From NCBI GenBank assembly GCA_043228905.1, contig JBHGNT010000011.1:682001-746000 (forward strand): DNA of 64,000 bases, read 5' to 3'. Shown here one piece after another: positions 3,939 through 51,415 of this stretch. The position numbers and the translations under genes were made by a program. This DNA comes from Azolla caroliniana. Taxonomy: Eukaryota; Plantae; Polypodiophyta. The notes under the pieces are model-generated. The model did not search any database. It saw only the letters and a list, made by a program, of their open reading frames with translations, and was not told the origin of the DNA. Positions within the stretch are counted from its first letter, which is position 1. The number at the start of each line of letters is the position of its first letter.

Positions 3939-4274
3939 ATGGACTCGATCCTCGATCGTCGTCCCATACCACTGCCGTGGCGTTGAGTCGTACCTGGTGC
4001 TGGCGCGCTTGCTACAACAGTTGACCCACCACAAGAACAGAGTCTCGACGTAGTCAAAAGATGATAAAATAAGGGTAGCTAGGCCTCTTATTTATAACGA
4101 TACCCAAGGCCCCCAGGCAAGTTTAGACTTGGCTTAATGGGTTGTCTCAATCCCGAGGATTAAAAGTAATCCTCCCCTTCTTTACACTCTCGTTTAACCC
4201 TCACACTTATCCACGTGTATAGAATACTACGGTAAATTCTCACCACGAGATATTATATGGGCATGCCCGTAACT

Positions 4275-5204
4275 TCGACACTCCCCATGACTAGGACGCC
4301 CACCGATTACGTTTACCAGCATCGATAGTTGACACAGACGATCTACTGCTGCTTGCACCTCCGTAGGCATGGTTACATTGACGACCAAATTTGCAACAAG
4401 ATTAATAACGAAGGGGAGTTCATTGGAATCCCTTCTTGACGTCATCGCGACTGTCGCCTCAACCATCGTCTTCTCTGAATTTAATTTACTCTAACCAATA
4501 AGAAAGATTTGTGCAGGAAACATTTTGGAAGGAGTCAATACCTTATTCCATAGTTAGTTAGTTACATCATGCAGTAGCCATAACTAATTAACTATTAAAA
4601 ATTAATAAGCTTTTTACATTACCATAGCTAGTAGCCACAACTTGCTAACTAAGAAGGAAAATACATTATTCAATAACTAATTAACTATATGAGCTAGTAA
4701 TTATAGCTAATTAGCTACAAAAAATTGATAAGCTACTTACATTACCATAACAACTCGCCCCAACTCACTAGCTAAGAAGGAACATACATTACTCAACAAC
4801 TAATGAACTACACGAGGTAGTAGCCATAGCTAAATCACTACAGAAAACTAATAAGCTACTTCAGCTAGTTGTAGCTAAATAGCTACTAATAACTTTAACT
4901 AGTTACACTACATCAACTTTTATTCATGGCTAATTAGCTATAGGTAAATAGCTATTAATAACTATAACTAGTTACACTACATAAACTTTCATTCAAAGCT
5001 AATTAGCTACAATAGTTAATAGCTATAGGTAACTAACTACTAATAACTATAACTAGTTACACTACATCAACTTTTATTCAGAGCTAATGAGCTACAACGA
5101 TTAGTAGCTATAGTGAAATAGTTGCAAATAAATATAACTAGTTACACTACATCAACTTTTATTCAGAGCTAATTAACTACAATAGTTAGTAGTTCTAGCT
5201 AAAT
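4275..5204. repeat. Duplicated AT-rich segment with TAGCTA/TAACTA sub-repeats, paralogous to 24795-25850
   Basis: Direct sequence match to 24795-25850, with a deletion at ~4540 relative to that copy. Confidence 0.8.
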
Positions 5205-10785: not shown

Positions 10786-11746
10786 CGTCGTGAAGATTCT
10801 GGGCAATGGTGAGAAACCGGGGAATATCGGAAGAATCGGCAGAGTGCATCATGTGCACTTACCCTTGTAAAAATGTGTGAATAATATGGTTGCCTTTATC
10901 TTGGTCTTCATCTTCTCTTATTCCCTTAGGGTCTATACTTTGGTCTTCACTCTATTTCGTTTTAGGGTTTCATCTTGGTAGCTTTCTCCTTCTTCTTACT
11001 TTCTTGTTTTCAGTTAGGGTTCTTCGACTTCTTCTTCTCCTTCGTGTCTGTTTAGGGTCTAGCTCTGTGAAGAGCTTGTATGTTCAGTGGGGTTTGCTTC
11101 TGCTCGGTCTCTTGTGCAAGACCCCGCTCGGCGCGACGAGCCCGAGAGCTCCCCGATAGGCGGCTTGGCAGCAGGCGGCTGTTGCAACCTAACCTAGCTT
11201 GGTCCGGCTCGAAGCCGGTATTGTATCTCGCACTTGTATTTATATATATATATAAAAGGTTGTGCGTATTTGTATCTAGGTTGGTGTCGGGTGCATTTCT
11301 TTCCTTTTGTTTCCTGTACATAAGAGGTGTGTGTTGAGTCGGTACTGTGCACGTGGTCTCTCTCTTTTTCTTCCTCTCTCGTGTTCGGTAGCCGCCGGTA
11401 CACGTCCGGAATAACTCTGGGATGCGCCACAACCAGTGCGGCCGGGATTGGAAATAAGTCATCAACGAATCCATTGTCTAACTTCAAATTACAATTCTCG
11501 TGAAGATAATTCATTATTAAAATTTATCAAAATGAAACCATTATCTTATTTCCTTGTAACTAACATCCTGGACATCATGGTTTATCAACAACGTGACAAT
11601 ATGCCAATAAGAGGAACCCGTGATCCATTTCCTTGTAAAACCCCACATAGCAAGACAAAACAATAAGTCGACAATGAATCCATTGTCTAACTTCAAATTA
11701 GAATTCTCTCGAAGGTAATTCATTATTAAGAATTTATCAAAACCAA

Positions 11747-11819
11747 GCGCTTGTGGCCTAATGGATAAGGCACTTGACTTCTAATCAAGGGATTGTGGGT
11801 TCGAGTCCCACCAGGCGTG
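11747..11819 (+). tRNA. trnR: tRNA-Arg (anticodon TCT), copy 1
   Basis: 73-nt cloverleaf: D arm GCCT/AGGC, anticodon stem CTTGA/TCAAG with loop CTTCTAA, T arm GTGGG-TTCGAGT-CCCAC. U5:G68 wobble in the acceptor stem. Confidence 0.9.
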
Positions 11820-12423
11820 CGATACGAAAAAGAAACACCATGATGCACACTAAGACTAAACAATAACGCAATATCGAATTCGTATTCCTTGCAAGGTACC
11901 TCGCACATAACGATGGTTATCCAAACCAAGCACTTCTTGACATCTAAAGAAGGGATTTTGGGTTAGGGTTTGAGTCCTACCACACGTGCAACATATAGAT
12001 GAGGAAACCGTGATCGTATTTCCTTGTAACTAACATCCTGGACATCAAGCTTATCAACAACGTGATAGTATGCCAATAAGAGGAACCCGTGATCCATTTC
12101 CTTGTAAAACCCCACATAGCAAGACAAAACAATAAGTCAACAACGAATCCATTGTCTAACTTCAAATTAGAATTCTCTCAAAGATAATTCATTATTAAAA
12201 TTTATCAAAACGAAACCGTTATCCTATTTCCTTGTAACTAACATCCTGGACATCATGGCTTATCAACAATGTGACAATATGCCAATAAGAGGAACCCGTG
12301 ATCCATTTCCTTGTAAAACCCCACATAGCAAGACAAAACAATAAGTCAACAACGAATCCATGTCTAACTCCAAATTAGAATTCTCTTGAAGGTAATTCAT
12401 TATTAAGAATTTAGCAAAACCAA

Positions 12424-12496
12424 GCGCTTGTGGCCTAATGGATAAGGCACTTGACTTCTAATCAAGGGATTGTGGGTTCGAGTCCCACCAAGCGTG
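12424..12496 (+). tRNA. trnR: tRNA-Arg(TCT), copy 2
   Basis: Intact 73-nt cloverleaf, acceptor GCGCTTG/CAAGCGT. Confidence 0.92.
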
Positions 12497-12982
12497 CGAT
12501 ACAAAGAAGAAACACCATCGTGTCGGGTGCATTTCTTTCCCTTTGTTTCCTGTACATAAGAGGTGTGTGTTGAGTCGGTATTGCGCGCGTGGTCTCTCTC
12601 TTTTTCTTCCTCTCTCGTGTTCGGTAGCCGCCAGTACGCGTCCGGAATAACTCTGGGATGCGCCACAACCAGTGCGGCCGGGATTGGAAATAAGTCATCA
12701 ACGAATCCATTGTCTAACTTCAAATTACAATTCTCGTGAAGATAATTCATTATTAAAATTTATCAAAACGAAACCATTATCTTATTTCCTTGTAACTAAC
12801 ATCCTGGACATCATGGTTTATCAACAACGTGACAATATGCCAATAAGAGGAACCCGTGATCCATTTCCTTGTAAAACCCCACATAGCAAGACAAAACAAT
12901 AAGTCGACAATGAATCCATTGTCTAACTTCAAATTAGAATTCTCTCGAAGGTAATTCATTATTAAGAATTTATCAAAACCAA

Positions 12983-13055
12983 GCGCTTGTGGCCTAATGG
13001 ATAAGGCACTTGACTTCTAATCAAGGGATTGTGGGTTCGAGTCCCACCAAGCGTG
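12983..13055 (+). tRNA. trnR: tRNA-Arg(TCT), copy 3
   Basis: Identical to copy 2. Confidence 0.92.
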
Positions 13056-13165
13056 CGATACGAAGAAGAAACACCATGATGCACATTGAGACTAAACAAT
13101 AACGCAACATCGAATTCGTATTCCTTGCAAGGTACCTCGCACATAACGATGGTTATCCAAACCAA

Positions 13166-13238
13166 GCAGTTGTATTATAATGCATAAGGCACTTGACATC
13201 TAAAGAAGGGATTTTGGGTTTGAGTCCTACCACGCGTG
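13166..13238 (+). pseudogene. Heavily decayed tRNA-Arg relic (similar relics near 11930, 13857, 14548, 15145, 21511)
   Basis: GCAGTTGTATTATAATGCATAAGGCACTTGACATCTAAAGAAGGGATTTTGGGTTTGAGTCCTACCACGCGTG is collinear with the 73-nt tRNA and has the same AAACCAA leader. Confidence 0.8.
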
Positions 13239-13673
13239 CAACATGCAGATGAGGAAACCGTGATCGTATTTCCTTGTAACTAACATCTTGGACATCAAGC
13301 TTATCAACAACGTGATAGTATGCCAATAAGAGGAACCCGTGATCCATTTCCTTGTAAAACCCCACATAGCAAGACAAAACAATAAGTCAACAACGAATCC
13401 ATTGTCTAACTTCAAATTAGAATTCTCTCAAAGATAATTCATTATTAAAATTTATCAAAACGAAACCGTTATCCTATTTCCTTGTAACTAACATCCTGGA
13501 CATCATGGCTTATCAACAATGTGACAATATGCCAATAAGAGGAACCCGTGATCCATTTCCTTGTAAAACCCCACATAGCAAGACAAAACAATAAGTCAAC
13601 AACGAATCCATGTCTAACTCCAAATTAGAATTCTCTTGAAGGTAATTCATTATTAAGAATTTAGCAAAACCAA

Positions 13674-13746
13674 GCGCTTGTGGCCTAATGGATAAGGCAC
13701 TTGACTTCTAATCAAGGGATTGTGGGTTCGAGTCCCACCAAGCGTG
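13674..13746 (+). tRNA. trnR: tRNA-Arg(TCT), copy 4
   Basis: Identical to copy 2. Confidence 0.92.
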
Positions 13747-14365
13747 CGATACGAAGAAGAAACACCATGATGCACACTGAGACTAAACAATAACGCAACA
13801 CCGAATTCGTATTCCTTGCAAGGTACCTCGTACATAACGATGGTTATCCAAACCAAGCAGTTGTATTGTAATGCATAAGGCACTTGACATCTAAAGAAAG
13901 GATTTTTTGTTTGAGTCCTACCACATGTGCAACATGCAGAGGAGGAAACCGTGATCGTATTTCCTTGTAACTAACATCGTGGACATCAAGCTTATCAACA
14001 ACGTGACAATATGCCAGTAAGAGGAACCCGTGATCCATTTCCTTTTAAAACCCCACATAGCAAGACAAAACAATAAGTCATCAACGAATCCATTGTCTAA
14101 CTTCAAATTAGAATTCTCTCGAACATAATTCATTATTAAAATTTATCAAAAGGAAACCGTGATCCTATTTCCTTGTAACTAACATCCTGGACATCATGGC
14201 TTATCAACAACGTGACAATATGCCAATAAGAGGAACTCGTGATCCATTTCCTTGTAAAACCCTACATAGCAAGACAAAAGAATAAGTCGACAACGAATCC
14301 ATTGTCTAACTCCAAATTAGAATTCTCTCGAAGGTAATTCATTATTAAGAATTTATCAAAACCAA

Positions 14366-14438
14366 GCGCTTGTGGCCTAATGGATAAGGCACTTGACTTC
14401 TAATCAAGGGATTGTGGGTTCGAGTCCCACCAAGCGTG
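14366..14438 (+). tRNA. trnR: tRNA-Arg(TCT), copy 5
   Basis: Identical to copy 2. Confidence 0.92.
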
Positions 14439-14754
14439 CGATACGAAGAAGAAACACCATGATGCACACGTACCTTGCAATAACGTAACATCGAATTCGT
14501 ATTCCTTGTAAGGTACCTCGCACATAACGATGGTTATCCAAACCAAGCAGTTGTATTGTAATGAATAAGGCACTTGACAAGATGCAGATGAGGAAACCGT
14601 GATCGTATTTCCTTGTAACTAACATCCTGGACATCAAGCTTATCAACAACGTGACAATATGCCAATAAGAGGAACCCGTGATCCATTTCCTTGTAAAACC
14701 CCATATAGCAAGACAAAACAATAAGTCAACAACGAATTCATTGTCTAACTTCAA

Positions 14755-14827
14755 GCGCTTGTGGCCTAATGTATAACACACTTGACTTCTAATCAAGGGA
14801 TTATGGGTTCGAGTCGCACTAAGCGTA
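14755..14827 (+). pseudogene. tRNA-Arg(TCT) pseudogene, copy 6
   Basis: D-loop GG changed to GT, D stem and T stem broken, upstream leader deleted. Confidence 0.85.
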
Positions 14828-14869
14828 CGATATGACGGTTATTCATTATTAAGAATTTATCAAAACCAA

Positions 14870-14942
14870 GCGCTTGTGGCCTAATGGATAAGGCACTTGA
14901 CTTCTAATCAAGGGATTGTGGGTTCGAGTCCCACCAAGCGTG
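14870..14942 (+). tRNA. trnR: tRNA-Arg(TCT), copy 7
   Basis: Identical to copy 2. Confidence 0.92.
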
Positions 14943-14972
14943 CCATACGAAGAAGAAACACCATGATGCACA

Positions 14973-15034
14973 CTAATGGATAAGGCACTTGACTTCTAAT
15001 CAAGGGATTGTGGGTTCGAGTCCCACCAAGCGTG
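14973..15034 (+). pseudogene. 5'-truncated tRNA-Arg(TCT), copy 8
   Basis: Starts at CTAATGGATAAGG; the first 11 nt are missing. Confidence 0.85.
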
Positions 15035-15417
15035 CGATACGAAGAAGAAACACCATGATGCACACTGAGACTAAACAATAACACAACATCGAATTCGTAT
15101 TCCTTGCAAGGTACCTCGTACATAGCGATGGTTATCCAAACCAAGCAGTTGTATTGTAATGCATAAGGCACTTGACATCTAAAGAAGGGATTTTTGGTTT
15201 GAGTCCTACCACATGTGCAACATGCAGATGAGGAAACCGTGATTGTATTTCCTTGTAACTAACATCGTGGACATCAAGCTTATCAACAACGTGACAATAT
15301 GCCAGTAAGAGGAATCCGTGATCCATTTCCTTTTAAAACCCCACATAGCAAGACAAAACAATAAGTCATCAACGAATACATTGTCTAACTTCAAATTAGA
15401 ATTCTCTCGAACATAAT

Positions 15418-15745
15418 TGTTGAGCGGCAAGCTCAACCGGAGCCGGATCGGCTGAATAAGCCGGAGCCGGTAAGTGTGACAGATCGGGTGAAACGGATCG
15501 GTATTACGGTGAGCAACCGAACCAGCAAGCAGTGGAGGCCGGGTGCAATCCGTAACCGGAAGTCCAATCGGAAACCTAGTGTAGGATAGACTACTAGGTA
15601 GCTATAGTCTCGTAGTAAGTGTCAGATGCTCGTGTGAGCATTGAAGTATATGGTACTTCTGGAAGTCCCAAGAGGACTTGTATAAATAGTGCTACTTAGC
15701 ATAGTGTGTGTACAGAGTTTTGATATAATTTTGAAATTGTGTTCT

Positions 15746-15813
<68 letters not shown>

Positions 15814-18800
15814 GTTCTCTGTTTTACGCTTCCACAAATATTTACGTTCACATTGTATCAGAGCGCGAGGGTTGAGAACCTCTGCTGCAGACATTTACTC
15901 TTGAGAAGAAAACCCTAAAAGGTCGAAAACAGACACAGTAGAAGACATGGATAGAGGCATGGCTACGTCGCTCCCGGTGGAGAAGCTCGACAGGAGCAAC
16001 TGCGCATCCTGGTCTTACAAGATGCACCAGTACTTGCTTGGACACGAGTACTGGAGTTATGTCGAAGGAGCGAATGATGCGGCGCCCGACTCGGCACACA
16101 AGGACTTCCCGGTATGGGAACAGGCGGCAAGCAGGGTGATGTACTGCTTCGCGTCCAGTGTCGGCGATCAGCTGCTCAACCACATCCGTGACGCCAAGAC
16201 ACCGAAGGATGCTTGGGGGAACCTGAAAAAGGTTTTCGCCGCAAGCACCACTGCCCGGAAGCTGCAACTCAGACAGAAGTTGAGCAATGTTCGACAGAAG
16301 AAAATGTTCGTGGCAGACTACACGGGCCGGATAAAGGAGATCTGCAACTCGCTGGCCTCTATCAATGTTACCGTAGAGGAAGACGAGATGGTGGAGGTAT
16401 GTCTCGGAGGCCTGGCGTCCAAGTTTGGAGCGTTCCGGACTGCGGTGTGTACAAGGGAGAATACCCCCTCATTCTTTGACTTACAGTCGATGCTCCTTGT
16501 AGAGGAGAACCACGCCGGTGCATCTACCAGTGCATCCCCGGACAGCCGAATGTTGTACACAGGAACGGATCGACTTCGTGGGTGTGGTGGAAGAGGTGGG
16601 TCGGCATGCAATGGAGGCGGCCGGCAAGAGCAGGAACGGAGGCACTATGAGCGTGCCGACAGCAGTTTCGGGACTTCCACAAGCAGGGGGAGTCAAGGCG
16701 GTGCCGGAGGCCGGCAAGACAAATCCGCTACGGAATGCTGGTACTGTGGCAAAAAAGGCCACAGGGAAAGCGAGTGCTGGAGAAAGCGTGCCGATTCGGA
16801 CAAATCCGGATCCGGCAAGACTTGTAAGGATGGCCGGCAAAACTCGCACTACGCAAACGGATCAGGAGGATTCGGAACCGGAAAGGCCGGTAAGGGGCCA
16901 GCCTTGGTGATGAATCACAAGGCAAACTCAATGTAGAAGACCACTTCCAAAACGGAGGAAGTGTGGTATGTTGATTCCGGCGTGTCAAACCACATGACGA
17001 GCCACAAAGAGTGGTTCTCCTTTCTGGAGAAACCGGATCCACCAGGAGTAGTCGAAACCGGAGACGACACTCCTCACCCAATCGTGCACGTCGGAGAAGT
17101 CCCTCTAAGCCACGTCGGACAGAAAGGGAAGTTGATGAACATATTACACGTTCCGACAATCACGAAGAACCTGGTGTCCGTCTGTCAGATTGTCGACCAG
17201 GGGATGCAGGTGCGGTTTACGCACCTCGGGTGCTTCATTGAGGATGAGGGCGAAGTCATTGCGCAAGGGCGCAGAGACGGGAGGATGTTTATCCTCAACA
17301 CCAATGACTTTGGCACCTCTCTGTTCGCGAAACGACAGAAGGTCGAGTCAGACATCGACTTGTGGCACAAGCGGATAGGCCACGTCTACTACCGGAGGCT
17401 TCAAGTCCTGCAAACGAAACAAGTCGTTTTCGGTTTGCCGAAGTTCAGCGGCCAGAGAGCCGAAATTTGTGAAGCCTGCCAACTTGGGAAGCAACACCGG
17501 CTTCCATTCCCCACTGAACGGAACCGGAGCCGTAACAAGCTCGATCTCATCCATTCGGATGTGTGGGGACCGGCACAAAGTGTAAACCTTGGCGGGAGCC
17601 AATACTTCGTCTCCTTCATCGACGACTATACTCGATATACTTGGATCTACCTCATTGAGCGGAAGAGCGAAGTCTTCGATTGTTTCCGGAGCCTCCAGAA
17701 GATGGTGGAACGGGAATCGGAGAGGAAGATCAAATGCCTTCGGTCGGATGGCGGAAAGGAATATTTTTCCGGAGCCGAACTTAAGACACCTTCGGATATT
17801 CGGCAGCATAGCGTATGTGCATGTGCCGGATCAGAAGCGGAGAAAGCTGGATGCAAAATCGGAAAAATGCATCCTAGTCGGCTATGCTCAAGAGCAAAAG
17901 GGGTATAAGTGCTATAACCCCCGGACGAAGGAAGTCCGAGTTAGCCAGGATGTCGAGTTCGATGAATCGGCATCCTGGTACTCCGTACCGACTCTGACTT
18001 CCGATCCCAACCCAATGCCGGAAGATTAGGCCAGTGAGCCTGAATCAGCCCTGGCAGAGGATGATGAAGCTGGGACTCAATATGAGAGTCCGGAATCGTT
18101 ACGGTTGAGTGGACCGAACGAGCGACTGAGTCGGTTGGACCAGTCGGATGAAGAGACGGCAAGTGGTGCAGACTCTGCCGTGCTCTCCCGCGCAAGGAAC
18201 CGAGGAAACGGTTCACGCGCAAAGAGAAGGGGAAGAGGAAGATGCCGAAATTCGAAATCGGCAACAATGAGTCGGATCGATGCGTATCCGACTCCGGAAA
18301 GGAGAAAGGCGGATCTTCGGCAACAAAGACCGAACTAGCCAAGAAGGGCCTCAAATCAGGTGACGGTGCATTGCGCCGATCAACCCGCCAGAAGGATCCC
18401 GTCATGTGGTACGGGTACAATGAATACATGGCGCATCATTATGCGTACATGACTAAGGTGACAGAAGTGCGTGAGCCGGAGAGCTACGCAGAAGCGGCAA
18501 AGGACGCAAATTGGCGTGCCGCTATGGACGAAGAAATGTGGGCACTCGATGCCAACGAAACTTGGGACCTAGTTGATCCTCCCCGTCACTGTAAACCGAT
18601 CGGATGCAAGTGGGTGTACAAGCTCAAGTACAACGCCGACGGTTCTGTTAACCGGTACAAAGCCCGGTTAGTGGTGAAGGGATACGCGTAGACCCACGGA
18701 ATCGACTACGACGAGACCTTCACTCCTGTGGCGAAGATGACGACGGTTCGTGTGGTACTGGCGGTTGCTGCGGCAAGGGGGTGGCATCTTCACCAGATGG

Positions 18801-21003
18801 ATGTGAAGAATGCCTTCCTTCAAGGAGAGCTTGAAGAAGAAGTCTTTATGACTCAGCCCCCCGGATTTCAATCAGAGATGAACAAGTCGGCGGTATGCCG
18901 ACTGAAGAAGTCGCTTTACGGCTTGAAGCAAGCCCCCCGAGCTTGGAACGCGAAGATCACACACCGGTTGCGTAAGATGGGGTTTGCTGTCTCTAAGTCG
19001 GACTCTTCGTTGTTCATCCGGCAAGGCTCTGACGATCCGGTATGTATACTCTTGTATGTGGATGATTTAGTCATCACTGGACCGGGTCTTCCCGAAATCA
19101 ACCGCGTCAAGTCCCAGTTGTCGGACGCATTCGAAATGAAGGACCTGGGGGACCTTCATTATTTTCTTGGGATCGAAGTGATCCAGACCCCCGACGGCAT
19201 ATTGCTCTCACAACGACATTACGTGTTGAATATGCTGTATAAGTTCGGCATGACGGATTGTCGACCTGTCTCCACACCCCTGGACCGGAACCAGAAGCTC
19301 CATCCCAACTCCGGACCGGCCTGCAATGAGAAACGGTTCCGACAGGTTGTCGGAAGCCTGATCTACTTAACCATCACCCGACCCGACATCAGCTATCCGG
19401 TCGGCATGGTAAGTCAGTTCATGCAGAAGACGACCGTGGAGCATCTTCAATGCGCGCAACGAATATTACGGTATGTCAACGGCACTAAGGACCGGGGACT
19501 GCTATACCGGCTAGGTATACCCGACGAGCTTGTCGGTTACACAGATGCTGACTGGGCCGGCGATGCGTATGATCGCCGCTCCACTTCTGGATACATGTTC
19601 TCCATAGGTAGCGCGGCCGTTGCGTGGAGCAGCAAGAAGCAACCCATAGTGGCTTTGTCAAGCACTGAGGCTGAGTACCGGGCCGCTACCGTTGCCACTT
19701 GTGAAGCCATCTGGCTTCGGCGACTGCTACGAGACTTGCGGATCGAGGTACCGACCCCGATCCCGATTTACTGCGATAACATGAGCAGCCTGCAGCTCGC
19801 CAGGAACCCTGTGTTCCATGCTCGCACAAAGCACATCGAGGTGCACTACCACTTCATGCGTGAGCGGGTCCTGAGCGGTGAAGTTGACCTACGGTATGTT
19901 CATACGGATCGGCAAGTTGCCGACATCTTCACCAAGCCACTCGGATCGGACAAGTTGCAGCACTTTACCGACATGCTTGGTATTCAGCATCTCGATGTGC
20001 CGCACTTGAGGGGGAGAAGCAAGGGCAAAGTCTCTACCGAAACGGGCAAAGGCCAAAAAAACTGTTGAACCCGTCAGTAAGAGGAGATCCGGAAGAAGAG
20101 GAGACAAGAAGATGAAGGAAGTCGACACATCCGAACAAGTCGGAGCAAGCGGCTGTGAAGAAGAGTTGTGCACTCAGGAAGAGAAGTGCATGCTGTGCGG
20201 AGGTCATCACGACGGTACTGACCATGATGCGGAGTCGAATGAAGAATTCGATTTCGGTTCACCGGCTGAAGAAGTTGAGGGAAGCATGGAGAAGGCCAAG
20301 ACTTGGAAGCCGGAAGTCGAATCGGAGTGTACCGATTCGGACAAGAGCTGGAACGAGTCGGAGACATTTGACTCGGATCAACAGATGGATCTGGACGAGT
20401 TGGATCGACAGAAGGCCAAGGGGACACGAACACAGCGGAAGTCGATGCCATCGTGGGAGAACCGACGGATCGGCAAGCGTCGGAGTCACAGCAACGTGAG
20501 TGCTGAGATGGGCCTATTGAGCAGACATGCCGACCGAGAGGGTCGAGGCACGCAGAACCAAAGGGGTCGCGGCAAACGGGACCGGACCGGACGAGGAGCG
20601 CGAGCAAGGTGGAGTGATGCCAAGAGAAGTCGGTTGGAAGAACCGACTGCCACAGAGGTCGACACTATGACCCCACCTCAGGTTGAGCTTGAGGGGGAGT
20701 GTTGAGCGGCAAGCTCAACCGGAGCTGGTAAGCGAGACGGATCGGGTGAAACAGATCGGTATTACGGTGAGCAACCGAACCGCCAAGCAGTGGAGGCCGG
20801 GTGCAATCCGTAACCGGAAGTCCAATCGGAAACCTAGTATAGGATAGACTACTAGGTAGCTATAGTCTCGTAGTAAGTGTCAGATGCTCGTGTGAGCATT
20901 GAAGTACATGGTACTTCTGTAAGTCCCAAGAGGACTTGTATAAATAGTGCTACTTAGCACAGTGTGTGTACAGAGTTTTGATATAATTTTGAAATTGTGT
21001 TCT

Positions 21004-21046
<43 letters not shown>

Positions 21047-21088
21047 GTTGTTCTCTGTTTTACGCTTCCGCAAACACTTACGTTCACA
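15418..21088 (+). mobile_element. Ty1/copia retrotransposon with both LTRs (15418-15852, 20700-21088), pseudogenised gag-pol
   Basis: TG...CA LTRs and perfect 5-bp TSD ATAAT (15413-17 / 21089-93). PBS T(T)GTATCAGAGC at 15853 and PPT at 20690-20699. gag with CWYCGKKGHRESEC, protease WYVDSG, integrase with an internal deletion near 17772, RT LYVDD and RNase H. Several in-frame stops. Confidence 0.96.
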
Positions 21089-21329
21089 ATAATTCATTAT
21101 TAAAATTTATCAAAACGAAACTGTGATCCTATTTCCTTGTAACTAACATCCTGGACATCATGGCTTATCAACAACGTGACAATATGCCAATAAGAGGAAC
21201 TCGTGATCCATTTCCTTGTAAAACCCTACATAGCAAGACAAAACAATAAGTCGACAACGAATCCATTGTCTAACTCCAAATTAGAATTCTCTCGAAGGTA
21301 ATTCATTATTAAGAATTTATCAAAACCAA

Positions 21330-21402
21330 GCGCTTGTGGCCTAATGGATAAGGCACTTGACTTCTAATCAAGGGATTGTGGGTTCGAGTCCCACCAAGCG
21401 TG
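21330..21402 (+). tRNA. trnR: tRNA-Arg(TCT), copy 9
   Basis: Identical to copy 2. Confidence 0.92.
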
Positions 21403-21768
21403 CGATACAAAGAAGAAACACCATGATGCACACTTACCTTGCAATAACGTAACATCGAATTCGTATTCCTTGCAAGGTACCTCGCACATAACGATGGTTA
21501 TCCAAACCAAGCAGTTGTATTGTAATGAATAAGGCACTTGACAAGATGCAGATGAGGAAACCGTGATCGTATTTCCTTGTAACTAACATCCTGGACATCA
21601 AGCTTATCAACAACGTGACAATATGCCAATAAGAGGAACCCTTGATCCATTTCCTTGTAAAACCCCATATAGCAAGACAAAACAATAAGTCAACAACGAA
21701 TTCATTGTCTAACTTCAAATTAGAATTCTCTCGAAGGTAATTCATTATTAAGAATTTATCAAAAACAA

Positions 21769-21841
21769 GCGCTTGTGGCCTAATGTATAACGCACTTGAC
21801 ATCTAATCAAGGGATTGTGGGTTCAAGTCGCACTAAGCGTG
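21769..21841 (+). pseudogene. tRNA-Arg pseudogene, copy 10
   Basis: Shares lesions with copy 6 (TAATGTATAAC, GTCGCACT) and adds U33 to A. Confidence 0.85.
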
Positions 21842-21883
21842 CGATATGAAGGTTATTCATTATTAAGAATTTATCAAAACCAA

Positions 21884-21956
21884 GCGCCTGTGGCCTAATG
21901 GATAAGGCACTTGACTTCTAATCAAGAGATTGTGGGTTCTAGTCCCACCAAGCGTG
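21884..21956 (+). tRNA. trnR: tRNA-Arg(TCT), copy 11, probably defective
   Basis: 73 nt, with a C5:A68 acceptor mismatch and B-box TTCTA instead of TTCGA. Confidence 0.6.
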
Positions 21957-21964
21957 ATACGAAG

Positions 21965-22880
21965 AGCAAAATGGAATACAACCCATAAATGGTGATCAAT
22001 AAATGTAACAATTATTGTTTACATAACTTATTATCAAATTTCGGGTGATGCAAAGAATGTAATTAATTTATTTATATATCTTGATAAGAAGCACAGTACC
22101 TTGTTCATCCAACATTGTTTTTTATTACATTGGAAATGGTTGTTAGATCAACATTTGGAGCTTACTCAACATTGGGTTTGGTCTGATGGAGCTGGATCAC
22201 GATTTAAGGCTAAACAACCATTCTATTTTGTTGGGAGGTATGCTTTTGAATTAGGATTGGAGATAACATGGAACCTTTTCAAGTTTGGCCATGGAAAAGG
22301 TGAATGTGATGGAGCAAGTGCAATTATAAAACGAGCACTTACTCATGAACGACTAAAGGTAGATGGTGTGCATATGAATTGTGTCACTCATGTAGTGGAT
22401 TAGTTAAGAAAGTATATGTCATCTAGTCCAATTGGTGTTTACTCTTCATAGGTTCGAGATATCAAACACGTATTTTGGAAAGTGAGGATAGATGAAGTAA
22501 ATAGAGAGAAGACGTGGGAGTGCCAAGGAATCCATAAACTGTGATCTCTTCACCCTGTTCATGGTTATTCTATGAGGGATGGTCATTGTATTGTAGTTAT
22601 AGAAGTAACACGTTTTTGCTACCAATGCATATAGGGAAACGGGAGTGGATTCAATGTCTCTCAATCCATGTGATAATGATATCATGTTCCGTCAGGGTCA
22701 ATATGTGCCGCGGAAGACGATGCAATGAAGAAGAGTTTCTCGGCGTCCTATTGGAGTTAACGACGACATGTGAGAATGATGTACGTATGGTTCATGCTTG
22801 CTTACCTATCGGAGTGGCACCCAGGGGCTAATGGACGGATGGATGGTTGGGTCACGTTTCCGATTACAGGATGGGACACA
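21965..22880 (+). mobile_element. Sola-like DDD transposase remnant, second copy (duplicate of 26339-27272)
   Basis: WVWSDGAGSRFK...WNLF..GHGKGECDGASAIIKR; near-identical to 26339-27272. Confidence 0.6.
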
Positions 22881-24472: not shown

Positions 24473-25058
24473 ACTCCATTACTAGGATGCCCACCGATTT
24501 CGTGTACCACCATCGATAGTTGACACAGACGATCTACTTCCGCTTGCACCTCCGTAGGCATGGTTACATTGACGACCAAATCTACAACAAGATTAATAAC
24601 GAAGGGTAGTTCATTGGAATCCCTTCTTGACGATTGTCGCCTCGACCATCGTCTTCTCTGTAACCAATAAGAAAGATTTGTGCAGGAAACATTTTGGAAT
24701 GAGTCACAACTGCCCTTTCTAGTATGTACATAAATAGCCTAAAACCTAGTATGTCCAAATGGGACAATGTGAATACATCTATTATTTCCCGTATTCGACA
24801 CTCAATGACTAGGATGCCCACCGATTACGTGTACCACCATCGATAGTTGACACAGATGATCTACTTCTGCTTGCACCTCTGTAGGCATGGTTACATTGAC
24901 GACCAAATCTGCAACAAGATTAATAATGAAGGGGAGTTCATTGGCATCCCTTCTTGACGTCATCGCGACTGTCACCTCAACCATCATCTTCTCTGAATTT
25001 AATTTACTCTAACCAATAAGAAAGATTTGTGCAGGAAACATTTTGGAAGGAGTCAATA
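24380..25058. repeat. ~330-bp tandem duplication
   Basis: TAGCCTAAAACCTAGTATGTCC...GGAAACATTTTGGAA occurs twice (from 24408 and 24736). Confidence 0.85.
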
Positions 25059-25899
25059 CGAGGAGCATCCCATTCACCTTCTTGATGTACCTGAAGTATT
25101 TATATTTATCTTATTCATGTTATTAGTGATAATAAGCCAAGATCACTCAAAATGAATATTTCTAGCTACTATTTATTAACCACAACTATTTTATTATCTA
25201 ATTCTCTAATTATTTATACAATAGTAGCCACAACTAGTTAGCCTCTAATAACTAATAAACATCATGTTAGATCACCTATTTCCTACATCAACTAGCATCC
25301 ATAACTAATTAAATACGAATAACGAATAAGCTATTTGCATTACAATAGCTACTAGGCATAATTAACTATCTATAAAGGAAAATATGTTATTCCATAGTTA
25401 ATTAGTTACATCAGGTAGTAGCCACAACTAATTAACTATTAAAAATTAATAAGTTTTTTACATTACCATAGCTAGTAGCCACAACTCGCTAACTAAGAAG
25501 GAAAATACATTATTCAATAACTAATTAACTACATGAGCTAGTAATTATAGCTAATTAGCTACAAAAAACTGATAAGCTACTTACATTACCATAACTACTC
25601 GCCCCAACTCACTAGCTAAGAAGGAACATACATTATTCAACAACTAATGAACTACACATGGTAGTAGCCATAGCTAAATCACTACAAAAAACTAATAAGC
25701 TGCTTCAACTAGTAGTTGTAACTAAATAACTACTAATAACTTTAACTAGTTACACTACATCAACTTTTATTCATAGCTTATTAGCTATAGGTAAATAACT
25801 ACTAATAACTTTAACAATTAGTAGCTATAGTGAAATAGCTACTAATTGTTAACCATCACCATAGCTCCTTACTATAGGATGTGGTATGAATTTGTAAAT

Positions 25900-27272
25900 G
25901 TCCAATTTGTCAATCTAACCATATAGAACAATGTAAGGCATAAGAGAATGTTTACAGATCAATGGCTAGTCTTTTAGATTCAATATTGTGTCCTCCAGGA
26001 TTTGAGCTATCTTTCACCATTACAAGTGTGTTATGGGTATATGTTTAGATTGTGAACCTATTGTTTTAGGTGGTTTCCAAAAGAGTTGAGTAGTGAAACT
26101 TTAATCCTTGTTAAGTTGTTTGAAAATGTTGAGACAACTTACATAGGCAATGTGTGTAAACGAAAAGATTTAGCTAGAAAGTTTCTTAAACCAAGAGATT
26201 CGTCCTCTCTTTTCTTAGTATCTCTTAAAAAGTTCATTAAGCACAACTTAATTTACTTATGGCAGACTTGCATATTCTAAATTTTCAAATGACGTAGTGG
26301 TCTTAGTAGTAGATTTTGTAGAGAATTGTACTTTCAATGAGCAAAATGAAATACAATCCATTAATGGTGATCAATACATGTAACAATTATTGTTTACATA
26401 ACTTATTATCAAATTTCGGGTGATGCAAGGAATGTAATTTATTTATTTATATATCTTGATAAGAAACACAATACCTTGTTCATCCAACATTGTTTTTTAT
26501 TACATTGGAAATGGTTGTTAGATCAACATTTGGAGCTTACTCAACATTGGGTTTGGTCTGATGGAGCTGGATCACGATTTAAGGCTAAACAACCATTCTA
26601 TTTTGTTGGGAGGTATGCTTCTGAAATAGGATTGGAGATGACATGGAACTTTTTCAGGTTTGGCCATGGAAAAGGTGAGCGTGATGGAGCAAGTGCAATT
26701 ATAAAACGAGCACTTACTCATGAACAACTAAAGGTTGATGGTGTGCATATGAATTGTGTCACTCATGTAGTGGATTATTTAAGAAAGTATATGTCATCTA
26801 GTCCAATTGGTGTTTACTCTTCATAGGTTCGAGATATCAAACACGTATTTTGGAAAGTGAGGATAGATGAAGTAAATAGAGAGAAGACGTGGGAGTGCCA
26901 AGGAATCCATAAACTATGATCTCTCCACCCTGTTCATGGTTATTCTATGAGTGATGGTCCTTGTATTGTAGTTATAGAAGTTGCATGTTTTTGCTACCAA
27001 TGCATATAGGGAAATAGGAGTGGATTCAATGTCTCTCATCAATCCATGTGATAATGATATCATGTTCCTTCAGGGTGGTCATTATGTGCCGTGGAAGACG
27101 ATGCGATGAAGAAGAGTTTCTCGGCGTCCTATTGGAGTTAACGACGACATGCGAGAATGATGTACGTACGGTGCGTGCTTGCTTATCTATCGGAGTGGCA
27201 CCCAAGGGCTAATGGATGGACGGACGGACGGATGGATGGTTGGGTCACGTTTCCGATTACAGGATGGGACAC
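25900..27272 (+). mobile_element. Sola-like (Sola2-type motif set) DNA transposase pseudogene
   Basis: Frame-shifted motifs in order: VVDFVENCTF-EQNEIQS (26291-26360), WVWSDGAGSRFK, WNFF.FGHGKGERDGASAIIKR (26476-26826). Confidence 0.6.
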
Positions 27273-27358
27273 ACATCTGTATGTACAAAACGTGCGCTGG
27301 CACAACCTGATTTCAGGCCGCAGAAGCGCATGTGAAGGAAAAGGAGCACACACTCAGG

Positions 27359-46000: not shown

Positions 46001-49000
46001 GGACGCAATGACAATCACACATCGCTGATTGCTTCGCTAGCTCCACACCTCCACTAACAATGGAACCTGCGAGTACCACGATAGAAGCACATGGGCCATA
46101 CCATCACCCGATCATTGTTCGTCATGTCTATTGGGCATGAGGACACCCAGCACTTGTTGAACTTCCTCATAACCTCATTCAACCACAACCACCAACCTCA
46201 AGGATGATGTTCATTGACCACTACTCAACACATACATATTAGTGATATACTTCACACTCAAAAACCACATGCATTAAGATCATGATCATGTAGCTTTTCA
46301 TAACCTAGAGTTTCTAATTTTGATTCAGTACGGATAACATGAATTCACCCACATTTGTAAACGCGGACAAATTGTAACCTTCAGTAGAAATTTGTGCAGT
46401 AGGATATCCTGCTTAAATCTAAGCCCACTTGATTCAGTACGGATAACATGAATTCACCCACATTTGTAAACGCGGACAAATTGTAACCTTCAGTACGGAT
46501 AACATGAATTCACCCACATTTGTAAACGCGGACAAATTGTAACCTTCAATAGAAATTTGTGCAGTAGGATATCCTGCTTAAATCTAATTTTGATTCAGTA
46601 CGGATAACATGAATTCACCCACATTTGTAAACACGGACAAATTGTAACCTTCAGTAGAAATTTGTGCAGTAGGATATCCTGCTTAAATCTAAGCCCACTT
46701 GAGGAAATTTTACCATCCAATTGCGTTCCTTGCATTAAAATTGAACTGCTTATCATTTTAAGAGTGTGCGAAGAATATTGGACAGTGGGTATTATACGAA
46801 TGTTTATGGGTTCAATATGTTAGGGCTGATATTTAGTTAACAATGCTAATGTAGGATAACTTCAAGGCCATTTCTGCCCATCTTAAATACTGCCCATTAA
46901 GATCACTTGCCACTTGAATTGAGCAAGCTGCACAACAACATCCAACAATTCAGTCAATGACGTAAATCTCAGCTGGTCTTCTGCCCACTAAGGCCAGTTC
47001 CCAATTCACTCATTGTGCAAGCCTCACATGGGACAGATGTTTCAATCATCACACCCCTTCTAAAATGGAAATTATTTTTGTTCCATTTATCCTCTAAGCT
47101 CATACAAGGACTTTGATTTCAACTTGAATATGACTGTGATCAAAATAATTGCCCTGCTAATAATGAATTGCAATTATTTTCAGAAATCAGTTCCCAACTT
47201 ATCTACGGACAGATGGTGAATCATTAAATCATGACATGAACAGAAAGCACCAACTCTGAATGTGGCAAATACCCACTCCATTCTTTCTTAATCTCTCCAT
47301 TCAGAAAAATCTACCATAAACACAAGCAGTTCATAGGCTGGATGTCAACTCAGACGATGAACAGCGGGTAAACCTTGCTTCTAACTTCTATCCAGTCTGT
47401 CTGCCCCCACCATCATCAGTCACCAGCCGATTTCCTCGAGTTTCTATATGTTCAACATCTTCCCACATATTGACTGCAGCATACATGCTTGACATTAGAA
47501 CATATCCAGAAGCATTGTCGGGATATAATATGCAAGCTCTGTCAAAGCATTCCCTAGCAAAATTTAAATTGTTATAGCTTTTACAGCTCGTAAGCAACGA
47601 CCTCCAAACAGCAATGTCTGGGCAAACTGGCATGGTACAAAGTAAAGCTTCTGCCTCTTGAAGCAAGCCTGCGCGACCAAATAAATCGATCATACAACTG
47701 AAATGTTCCATATTTGGCACAACTCCATGAACCTCCCTCATCGTTTGGAAATAATGGTGCCCATCCACGAGGAGGCCAGCGTGACCACAAGCAGTCAAGA
47801 TACTAGTAAATGCAGCATCACCAGGTCGCAATCCACACTGTTGCATGTCTTTGAGGCATTCCCAAGCCAATGAAGAGCTCCCATGAGATGCATAACCTGA
47901 CACCTTTGTCCCCCATGTAATGACATCAGGGTTCTGCAACTCCTTTGAAGTACGGAAAGCCTCAGATAGGCTTCCACATCTTATGTACATGTCTGCAAGC
48001 ACAGTCCCAACTGCAACATCAGACTCCAGCCCACTTTTGATAATCTGAGAATGAGCAAATCTACCTTGTTCTATCGCCCGTAAGCTGCCGCATGCTTTTG
48101 TCACAGAAAGATAGATAGCTCGATTTGGTTTCAAATCTGTTTGCTCCAATTTTTCAAAAAACGTAAGTGCAGCAATAGCATCCTCTTGCATCACGTAGCC
48201 TAGAATCATTGCACCCCAAGATACGATGTCAGGCTTAGGAATATCATCAAAAACTTTGCGTGCTTCTCTTGTACCCCCACATTTCACATACATGTCCACA
48301 AGGGCACCCTCAATCACTGGATCGGATGCTGCATGGCTTCTCAAGAACTCGTCATGTATATAGAAGCTTTCATGGATGTCACCTATGCTGCTACATGCTT
48401 TCATCAGGGAGGAGAATGTGAGGGTGTTGGGAGCAATGCCCACTTGCCTCATGTTCTGGAAAAAGTTCAATGCCAGCCAACCATGTCCATACTCTGCGTA
48501 TCCTGAAATCATGACGCTCCATGTGACCACATCCTTACATGGTATGCTATTAAAGACATTCTCGGCATCTTTCACATCCGAGCATTTACAATATGCAGCT
48601 AATATTGTGTTCCAAACACTCAAATCAAATTCAAATCCATGTTCGAAAATCTCCCCATGCACATACCTTATGTGATCAATGCCAGTGCAAGCTTTTAAGA
48701 TGGACAAAAAAGTGACCTTATCTGGCATGATCCCAGCACACTTCATATCGTTGTACAATGACAGAGCTAGTCCATTCTCACCAAACGTGGTAAATGCAGA
48801 GATCATAGAGTTGCACGTGTACGCAGTAGGGTTTTGAACATGTAAAAATACATCATAAGCTTCTTGCAATGCCCCACATGTGGCAAACAAGCGGATGAGG
48901 TTATCGTTGAGAAAGGTGATTGACCCAAGGTGTGTCCCCATAATTAGCTGGTGGATGCGTCTCGCAGAAACACGGTCCTTCTTCTTCAGGCAACCTTTGA

Positions 49001-51415
49001 TAAGGCAGTATATAATGTCACTAGAAACGGCATGCATGAGCCCTTCCTGTTTTGTCTCTTCCACAGCCCGAATGACTTCACATAGCTTCCCACCTTGCCT
49101 GGCCAGGGTAGCCATGGCCAAAAGGCGGTGGTATCGATGCTGCTGCTGTTGCTTCGGGACATCCATCATTCATCAGCAGTTATCATCAGTATTGTCATTG
49201 TGAGATCCGGAAAAGGATCGAATGGCATGGGTCAAATTTAGGCCATGGGAAGGGAAAGTTGAGAGAGATGTCCTCACTTATTTTTACCCACTTCCACTTT
49301 GTTGAATTAAAGGCCCCTGGCAGTGTACATATAATACATTTGTGTGGACAAGCACAAACCACCCGCGAGTGTAATCAACAAAAAGAGTGTTACATTTAAT
49401 ACTGTAGATGGGTTAGAAGTTACAGGAACCTAAGAGACAGTTCTAGGGTTAGCTCCTCATGTAGCCACTGAATTATATCTAACCTCACTTAGGAGCACTT
49501 GAGCTACGGATCCCTTTGTATCATTCCCTCTATTGTAGTCAGGCTTCAGCACTCTTTACTATACTATAAATCTGTTTTTCCATTGTTTCCCTGTGTTGAA
49601 TAATTGTCTCCATATTCTCTATTTTCAGCCATTCATTGACATGATATCAGCACTACAGAGATTCCATGCTTGTTAATCAAGGAGATCTTTGGAGGAGGAA
49701 ATTTATCAGAGGCAGTGGCTATTAGACAAGGCCTTGAAGAGCGCTAACGCGGTGCAGATGGTTTCCTCGGTTGTGTTCATAGTGGGAATCTTGGCGAGTG
49801 TGGCCACATCCATTAGCGATGTTGGAGAGGAAGCTCGACGGGACAAACTACATGTGGAAGTTCATATTGTGGATTATCATGAGCTAAGTCTATAGCAATG
49901 ACATTATCAATATTTTCTTCAACTTCATCAAGAAAGCAAACAGCTATGGCAATGACAGTAGGGAAGAAAGAGTACTCTAATAAACAACGAAACAAAGAAA
50001 AGGCATTAACCATGAAGCTCATGTTCAAAAAATTAATGTGTAAACTCTGATTTATGAAACTTGGAAATAATAGGAGATGAAAAAATAATAAAAAATGAAG
50101 AGATTAAGAGAAAGGAGAAAGTAAATGATTGAGAAGGAAAATAGATATCAGTAATGGAGCAAAAGATTCCATGGTCTTCTTATTCCTCTTCACCAACAGC
50201 TATGGTTGTGGAAAAGAGAGACGCCTCCAAAAAAGAGGACTTCTCACTCTCTACCATTTTCTCAAGCTTTCTGTTATTACTTTTTCAGCCATTCTCTCAC
50301 GTTTCCGGTTTTAAAACATTGACAAAAATGACTCTTGACCTTCTGCGACTAAATAACCACAAGTTCATAGAAACCCAGTTCGTTCTATGCTCTTGTTATA
50401 GTTCAGACGACAAAGGATGCTCTTCATAAGAGCAGGCCATGAGGGAATACACCTCACAATCACACTGAAAAGGTAGATTCAGGTTTACTGGTTTCTTCAT
50501 AAATGGTATCACTTTTCTACCCCAGCACCCTCTTGTTACTTTGTCTTTAAGGCCACCACTATACACCCTGTTCTTACCAGGCCTTTAACGTCACTATTAT
50601 ATTGGTCAGCCAGAAGACAATGTTGATCATGGCATTGACATTTGTCAAATTCCATGTCATTTCCTATTAAAAACATTTTCACAAGTTCATATCACCTCCA
50701 ATACAGCGCTATCATGGTTAGGCACTTAGGAATGACTTGTCATGATGTCGTTACCAACTCTTATTTGGTAAAGACGCGTGCGTAATTCAATCATTCATTG
50801 AAATATCAAAATTAAGTCTTGTTGCCATGTTTCTTGTGTGGGAGTTACACCTCCAAGATTAGGTTTTTAAGGTTTTTCTTTGAGCTTCATTTCAGTTTTT
50901 AACAGCATAATCTGGCCGAGATTTTTCCATATTAATCCTTTTTCTAGCTATTGAATGTTTCTTGTATTGGAGTTGCACCTCCAATATTAGGTTTTTAAGG
51001 TTTTTCTTTTAGTCTTTTTGAGCTTCTTTTCAGTTTTTAACAGCATAATCTGGCCGAGATTCCTCCATATTAATCTTTTTTTCTAGCTATTGACAGGCAT
51101 AGCACTCACCGCTCCTGTGTTTCTAATGCTTGCAGTCTTGGCTAGAAGTTCTTTCGGCAATTTCGCAATACTCTAAAAAAAAAAAAAAAAATTGGGAAGG
51201 AGCAAAAGAAATCAGCATCGATGAAATCGTGTGGAGCATCACTCGGAACGAATTAAGGTTCGATCTTAGGGTTTTACTGAAGCTTGTTTGCTTTAATTCT
51301 TTACCTCAGTGGGGGAGGTGTTCCGGATGAGGTCGGCGAGGTTGGAGACAGAGAGCACACATTGCACGAGACGATCCGAAACCTTGGCTGTGGTAGCAGC
51401 AGCTGGGCCAGAAGC

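Follow-up and report, generated by a model that had tools for sequence, protein, structure and literature searches.

A tandem tRNA-Arg(UCU) array in the fern Azolla caroliniana is consistent with a birth-and-death gene family under weak selection on its tRNA product

The window analysed here is a 64,000-nucleotide stretch of the 523-Mb Azolla caroliniana assembly (C11:682001-746000; contig JBHGNT010000011.1 of GCA_043228905.1). Among named matches, the plastid matK of this assembly comes nearest to tree ferns and Marsileaceae (49–53% identity); for Salviniales, PMC6786969 reports small genomes, and for Azolla chromosome numbers that are almost doubled. It contains a tandem array of tRNA-Arg(UCU) genes in which 17 copies stand head to tail, 7 of them intact and 10 decayed (4 damaged, 6 relics), with copy number as assembled. 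The array likely is a young offshoot of a family present on three chromosomes (C11, C22 and C4), and its intact units were likely kept because their tRNA is usable. We found that intact tRNA bodies in this family change at less than half the rate of their spacers and that dead tRNA slots in the same units change at the spacer rate. Judged from sequence, we moderately favor a tRNA gene family that evolves by birth and death and whose tRNA product is under weak selection: copies appear to decay at the neutral rate once born, and the lineage that keeps duplicating appears to have kept a complete tRNA.

The family carries an internal control in the form of a dead and a live tRNA slot on one duplication tree. 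Slots were assigned by their flanks and position and not by the state of the body, the tree was built from non-body columns, and expected changes were calculated from base-specific spacer rates with non-homologous tails masked. In a young set of 18 units (5 from C11 and 13 from C22) the tRNA body had accumulated 30 changes where 66.6 were expected (P 4e-7), or 0.45 of the spacer rate. The relic slot of these units had 62 changes where 62.2 were expected, or 1.0 of the spacer rate, and the two slots differed when compared on one tree (62 versus 30, p 0.001). Depletion of body changes was also seen when all 26 units were used (69 versus 130.8 expected) and with C22 units only (29 versus 56.5). 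A sequence-only reading of this stretch had proposed birth and death for the array; the rates bear this out, and bodies do not diverge as fast as spacers.

The depletion is confined to the older branches. Body changes seen in a single unit numbered 21 against 24.2 expected, so the tips evolve at about 0.9 of the neutral rate, while changes shared between units numbered 9 against 42.4, which places shared branches at about 0.2, an approximately five-fold depletion. For the intact slot of the C4 arrays, 17 units were selected by their flanks and 6 belonging to a deletion class were set aside; the remaining 11 gave 30 singletons (36.8 expected) and 10 shared changes (27.3 expected). Conservation was not limited to the internal promoter: outside the A and B boxes we counted 24 changes where 47.6 were expected (P 1e-4), with depletion inside the boxes as well, and both the acceptor stem (7 versus 13.8) and the anticodon arm (8 versus 14.6) were affected.

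Searching the genome with a 30-nt core and at most 2 mismatches returned 90 matches, 62 of which lie in three related arrays (11 on C11, 30 on C22 and 21 on C4). An nhmmer search over 639 kb recovered 15 copies on C11, 68 at C22:1.428-1.512 Mb and 73 in the C4 arrays. The family amounts to about 158 copies, most of them decayed, with more relics than intact genes across the family; the small arrays at C3:10.19 Mb and on C14 are left out of this count since their spacer is not shared. All 63 BLAST matches to the spacer fall on C11 and C22, and the C11 spacer is 69–73% alike to the best-matching C4 flanks (z 4–8), that is, about 30% diverged. The spacer is unrelated to the flanks of canonical genes and is not shared by the 10 best copies tested outside the C4 arrays. 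The C11 units form one clade within the diversity of C22, with up to 90–93% identity to the best C22 units, and outside the array the two regions have only transposons in common. Because of this nesting and the absence of other shared sequence, we consider the C11 array likely to be a daughter of the larger C22 array and a cousin of the older C4 arrays; origin of the C11/C22 pair by whole-genome duplication was rejected on the same absence. The array had also been called nascent, which does not fit a family this old and this widely placed.

The array tRNAs differ from the canonical gene. Five canonical dispersed genes, seen among the best copies of 32 stretches, carry C5-G68 and C6-G67 and have a run of four T (T4) within 4–53 nt. 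The array alleles are T6-A67 combined with T5-G68 on C4 or with T5-A68 on C11 and C22. All four differences sit in two acceptor-stem pairs, and pairing and cloverleaf are kept. The majority tRNAs of C4 and C11 differ solely at position 68, with pairing preserved, despite spacers that are 69–73% alike. The private alleles T5, T6, A67 and A68 make the array RNA distinguishable by tRNA-seq. Among the decayed copies, an anticodon change leads ARAGORN to call two Arg copies on C22 (1430503-1430577 and 1436966-1437041) tRNA-Lys(TTT), and a C4 copy comes out as Ser(TGA); such calls are a source of miscounted isotypes.

Several observations weigh against selection on the tRNA product. The C11 array alone gives no significant result (segregating sites 1/73 versus 17/235, p 0.08), and 14 young units of a tRNA-Lys array in the same genome show no constraint (18 versus 18.2). 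With neutral tips, and with changes present in most copies on C22 and in every C4 copy examined, selection can act on few copies at any one time. Recombination among units makes the tree-based counts approximate. Positions 5, 6, 67 and 68 are CG or CHG sites, which mutate readily. Finally, the array has no poly(T) terminator, the first T4 lying 104 to more than 300 nt behind the gene as compared with 4–53 nt in canonical genes.

Neutral tips on a conserved trunk are also what an amplification bias predicts, in which an intact RNA polymerase III (Pol III) promoter makes a unit stall forks or recombine more, and units are re-duplicated regardless of whether the tRNA is useful. The missing terminator and the fact that several isotypes form such arrays in the A. 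caroliniana genome fit this explanation. However, it does not account for conservation beyond the A and B boxes or for an anticodon and pairing kept across the spacer divergence between arrays, and we regard it as unlikely. A neutral satellite of tRNA origin, silenced and carried as a passenger, in which recency alone explains the intact copies, would give the neutral tips, the mostly decayed family in its transposon-rich setting and the neutral Lys array, and Arabidopsis clusters are described as silent in most tissues in the portion of the source available (PMC7544208). Yet the relic slot changes twice as fast as the intact slot and C4 shows the same pattern, so that this explanation is rejected for the trunk unless conversion biases the rate test; we consider it improbable.

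On the birth-and-death reading, a piece of the C22 array would have been copied into retroelement debris on C11, would have grown there by unequal crossing-over and microhomology slips, and would then have been split by a Copia element. Most copies are likely silenced and decaying, and weak selection on the tRNA product would keep the trunk intact. Pol III, finding no near terminator, would continue for 100 to over 300 nt, and RNase Z would remove the resulting trailer. The array tRNA would decode AGA, and the sequence-only reading had put forward a raised dose of AGA decoding as a possible role; AGA is not the leading Arg codon in the retroelement open reading frames (ORFs) of the window (8/80, 9/25 and 7/49). 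This tRNA likely served Gypsy-type elements as a primer, too.

Retroelements hold a record that bears on this last step. Many dispersed matches end in a genomic CCA a few bases from a TG end resembling that of a long terminal repeat (LTR), and most of these CCA-ended copies are 18 nt, the length of a primer-binding site. Of 18 sites tested, 10 had a retroelement ORF upstream, in every case on the opposite strand as in an ordinary primer site; one of these had a Copia on the same strand as well. It is established for retroviruses and Ty elements that the primer site is recopied from the primer tRNA. Using exact 16-nt patterns, and after removing 2 array copies, we counted 102 CCA-ended sites: 47 with G67G68, 6 with G67A68, 31 with A67G68 and 18 with A67A68. 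A67 was present in 49 of the 102 as compared with 17, 13 and 9 at control CpG positions, and in 0 of the 5 canonical genes. The excess of A67 over its symmetric partner G67A68 (6) persisted even under a two-fold G-to-A bias (p 3e-4), and G67 and A67 alleles were interleaved in LTR family trees (54 sites examined). Because a primer site is recopied from tRNA, the A67 excess is suggestive of a mature A67 tRNA that served as primer, and of its expression in the past. The earlier proposal that the array could supply primers thus finds indirect, suggestive support in A67. For the A67+A68 end specific to C11 and C22, a claim of over-representation was dropped, its excess vanishing against the symmetric control (18 versus 7, p 0.54 after G-to-A bias).

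The primer-site record has its own counterweights. The counts are not independent, the 54 examined sites belonging to two main LTR families and some small ones, and changes of this kind are tolerated by G-U pairing. An older isodecoder gene dispersed in the genome is another possible source of A67, and angiosperm genes also carry T6-A67.

Full-length tRNA-Arg copies with genomic CCA were found beside LTR-like ends at C1:14.81, C1:16.20, C4:10.67, C4:20.10, C16:10.39, C18:10.897 and C18:18.04 Mb, the one at C4:20.10 Mb being of array type and abutting the LTR-like end. These are likely primer tRNAs copied past the usual 18-nt stop, and such retro-copies inflate tRNA gene counts. T5 and T6 in the long retro-copies were not counted as evidence owing to mixed haplotypes (C16, C1:16.2 Mb and C4:10.67 Mb). 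Their existence favors a further explanation, in which other copies, or complementary DNA that retroelement reverse transcriptase has made from tRNA, overwrite the bodies with no selection involved; three array copies also carry the canonical C5. However, overwriting from canonical genes would have removed the alleles typical of the arrays, and T6 is kept in 26/26 near-intact copies on C22, 10/10 on C11 and 14/14 on C4. Relic slots are not repaired either, and we judge conversion very improbable.

A broader and rather doubtful possibility is that terminator-less Arg(UCU) arrays form a primer reservoir in a host–retrotransposon loop. They would be derepressed where Gypsy replicates and would be the source of about half of the recorded primers; the drain of primers would favor amplification of intact units, and serial, decaying Arg, Lys, Ile, Thr and His arrays would explain much of the tRNA-gene excess of Azolla. 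Apart from this, past isodecoder expression could be read from primer-binding sites, as from fossils, in any LTR-rich genome, and our literature search found no account of such a use of them.

Within the window, ARAGORN called 9 Arg(TCT) genes in 11747-21956, 7 of them in 11747-14945 and all on the plus strand, and an Rfam scan gave 11 tRNA matches above the gathering score. The seven intact copies score 69.5–71.6 bits, have intact A and B boxes and have the cloverleaf as minimum-energy fold. The features of the array and its flanks are as follows.

10787-11460, no strand assigned: left flank, a dispersed repeat (520 candidates) with a short shared sequence at the array junction.
11284-13768, plus: one 1,236-bp duplication (11284-12518 and 12520-13768, 96.5%), which takes in about 170 bp of left flanking repeat.
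11455-15417, plus: left arm of the tRNA-Arg(UCU) array.
11747-11819, plus: intact tRNA-Arg(UCU), T5-G68 wobble variant as in the C4 arrays, 69.5 bits.
11930-11988, plus: relic slot with internal deletion and insertion.
12424-12496, plus: intact array-type tRNA-Arg(UCU), T5-A68 and T6-A67, 71.6 bits, cloverleaf as minimum-energy fold.
12770-12982, plus: example of the 207–213-bp spacer module, made up of two copies of the ancestral tRNA flank, homologous to the 110-bp inner spacer.
12983-13055, plus: intact identical copy (ARAGORN, Rfam).
13166-13238, plus: relic slot with 14 changes, holding the first T4 run, 156 nt behind an intact copy.
13674-13746, plus: intact identical copy (ARAGORN, Rfam).
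13857-13929, plus: relic slot.
14366-14438, plus: intact identical copy (ARAGORN, Rfam).
14547-14578, plus: relic slot, 3' half deleted.
14755-14827, plus: damaged copy with 7 changes, cloverleaf lost in the fold, 31.7 bits.
14870-14942, plus: intact identical copy (ARAGORN, Rfam).
14973-15034, plus: 5'-truncated damaged copy, tRNA positions 12–73, through a 92-bp slip duplication.
15145-15217, plus: relic slot.
15418-21088, plus: Copia LTR retrotransposon inside a spacer (LTRs 15418-15852 and 20700-21088; 5-bp target duplication).
21089-21960, plus: right arm of the array, resuming the spacer cut by Copia.
21330-21402, plus: intact identical copy (ARAGORN, Rfam).
21511-21542, plus: relic slot, 3' half deleted.
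21769-21841, plus: damaged copy with 6 changes, anticodon loop affected, no cloverleaf fold, 37.3 bits.
21884-21956, plus: damaged copy with 3 changes, including a C5-A68 mismatch and G57T in the B box.
21964-22880, plus: right flank, a fragment we take to be transposase-like from a motif (no Pfam match), with a 94% duplicate at 26339-27273.

These results agree with the counts of the sequence-only reading: 11 recognisable copies (by ARAGORN, Rfam and alignment), of which six are identical over 73 nt, one is a wobble variant differing from them only at position 68 (11747) and four are damaged; about six older relics (11930, 13166, 13857, 14547, 15145 and 21511); about 4.8 kb of array (4,841 bp without Copia); and conserved spacer modules of about 207 bp, which we measured at 207–213 bp with 91–93% identity between classes. 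The proposed 1.2-kb higher-order repeat did not hold. The basic period is about 690 bp (691 and 692 between 12983, 13674 and 14366), and the 1.24-kb unit is a single duplication. CAA directly precedes each intact body, as had been noted, but relics have it too and it does not mark intactness.

The unit of about 690 bp consists of one intact slot, one dead slot and a tRNA-less spacer. Alignments among the 110-bp inner spacer and the two halves of the 210-bp module scored higher than any of 300 shuffles, so the array likely derives from one monomer of a tRNA and its flank, in which slots stayed intact, decayed or lost their tRNA. Short shared sequences were found at internal junctions and a 7-nt direct repeat brackets each body, from which we infer slip deletions and duplications. 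By fold prediction the tested relic, like the copies at 14755 and 21769, has no cloverleaf.

No run of four or more T was found within 100 nt of any intact copy in the window, and behind several copies the first T4 falls inside the following relic. In the 30 nt after the gene the T content is 17% in the array versus 37–53% in canonical genes, and the array trailers are A-rich. A G-to-T substitution in relic sequence (13213-13216 and the corresponding slots) gave rise to the first T4 behind an intact gene. In four C22 units that lack it, a T4 comes about 55 nt behind the gene; these units form one clade and so represent one event. A tRNA–small nucleolar RNA (snoRNA) dicistron is recognised by a snoRNA in the 3' trailer. 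This was rejected, since an Rfam scan of 11000-22500 at E<=1 returned only tRNA and its opposite-strand shadows, with no snoRNA in the trailers.

Since Copia splits a spacer, the array is older than that insertion, which has broken ORFs and an LTR Kimura two-parameter distance of 0.040. The element belongs to a very abundant family, and a member in the opposite orientation, 93–94% identical, lies within the C22 array region (C22:1,442,124-1,448,064). The array stands between two copies (4266-5204 and 24788-25815) of an element that has subrepeats of 123 bp and a fragment resembling a transposase, without a Pfam match; a Copia, a repeat and the array itself interrupt the left one. On either side there is debris of retroelements, and the first gene-like sequence begins about 5.8 kb away at about 27742, a multi-exon sequence whose start we take to be RRM/PTB-like. 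It had been suggested that the array could act as a chromatin barrier, with TFIIIC or Pol III shielding the neighboring gene block; the boxes are intact and there is a gene-like neighbor, but the intervening debris, the Copia inside the array and conservation outside the boxes leave this hardly credible. Further along, 47388-49169 (minus strand) encodes a 593-aa PPR-E protein ORF, and 61898-61972, lying between ACAT/ACAC microsatellites, resembles tRNA-Phe(GAA), has a broken 3' end and looks repeat-borne and not like a normal gene.

Contigs from short reads, matched at 99% or more, support the assembly: runs X1, X4, X6 and X2 cover 27, 24, 16 and 22 of 30 array bins. The left array junction is bridged by one X1 contig, and both Copia junctions are shown by loose ends in X2 and X4. 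Two contig sets presumed to come from RNA gave no match on the array, an outcome that counts neither for nor against expression. Since the units differ from one another and these contigs match the array and its junctions, an assembly artefact is unlikely.

The array holds at least five genes of one isotype within 5 kb and is a homocluster by the working definition given in the accessible part of PMC13437025. Its 691/692-bp periods, the C11 clade and the homologous spacers indicate local tandem duplication with shared flanks. Plant tRNA-gene homoclusters named in the available portions of three sources include Arabidopsis Pro, maize Ile/Ala, barley Gln and the moss 'Cpu' Ile/Cys clusters, and no Arg(UCU) or fern cluster (PMC13437025, PMC13578239, PMC12652284). 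The fern array shares with these their density of one isotype and the AT-rich/CAA leader; the Arabidopsis Pro cluster is described there with uniform poly(T) tracts, which the fern array lacks. The Arabidopsis Ser-Tyr-Tyr array is described, again in part-available sources, as shaped by unequal crossing-over with many pseudogenes (PMC2886086), and as silent in most tissues with reactivation in the root tip (PMC7544208, PMC12308677). Both arrays have tandem higher-order tRNA units and many pseudogenes, with unequal crossing-over inferred here. In contrast, the fern array has a single isotype, a dead slot and tRNA-less spacers in its unit, a private isodecoder, no near T-run and relatives on three chromosomes.

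Two kinds of mobile element invite comparison. Helenus and Cassandra miniature retrotransposons with terminal repeats (TRIMs), and tandem arrays of them, likewise have a small-RNA-gene sequence in tandem or tied to LTR elements in the accessible parts of PMC10886601 and PMC7215508. A TRIM was rejected because alignment inspection (no dedicated TRIM search) showed units without LTR ends, primer site or purine tract; unlike TRIMs, the array tRNA also keeps its anticodon and cloverleaf. In short interspersed nuclear elements (SINEs) derived from tRNA, and in SINE satellites, arrays are built of heads of decayed tRNA, each followed by a constant tail, and decayed tRNA copies in arrays are the likeness here. 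A SINE would have scattered copies beginning at tRNA +1, with one tail in common and 5' flanks that are unrelated. It was rejected on three counts: the spacer is not dispersed (63/63 on C11/C22), the gene was duplicated together with its 5' flank, and a poly(A) tail was not seen.

Our literature search found no description of fern Arg(UCU) arrays, though discussion of tRNA expansion in Azolla may bear on novelty; the array appears to be a variant of plant tRNA homoclusters not described before in the literature searched. Azolla is credited with about 7,500 tRNA genes and more than 10,000 tRNA-like sequences, an excess ascribed to genome duplication and repeats, and arrays are not described in the portions available (PMC13578239; 10.1101/2021.12.21.473619). 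Whether plant tRNA clusters are adaptive or a by-product is called unresolved in a 2026 review, as available in part (PMC13578239). For some of the tRNA excess of Azolla, the arrays provide a concrete mechanism.

Other tRNA arrays were seen in a census that scored 63 of 58,716 rough candidates with Rfam and gives no genome total. Lys(UUU) homo-arrays lie at C5:17.913-18.023 Mb (unit about 368 bp; at least 41 Lys calls in 30 kb) and C16:18.116-18.119 Mb; two of their copies have mutated to an Asn anticodon and one young block evolves neutrally. Decaying arrays of Ile(UAU) at C2:20.109 Mb, Thr(UGU) on C3 and His(GUG) at C4:19.530-19.541 Mb were also found. Arg, Lys, Ile and Thr arrays together cover all four ANA codons, in a sample that is small and biased. 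Leu-Gln-His(-Met) tRNA groups in three stretches of nuclear contigs look like organellar insertions.

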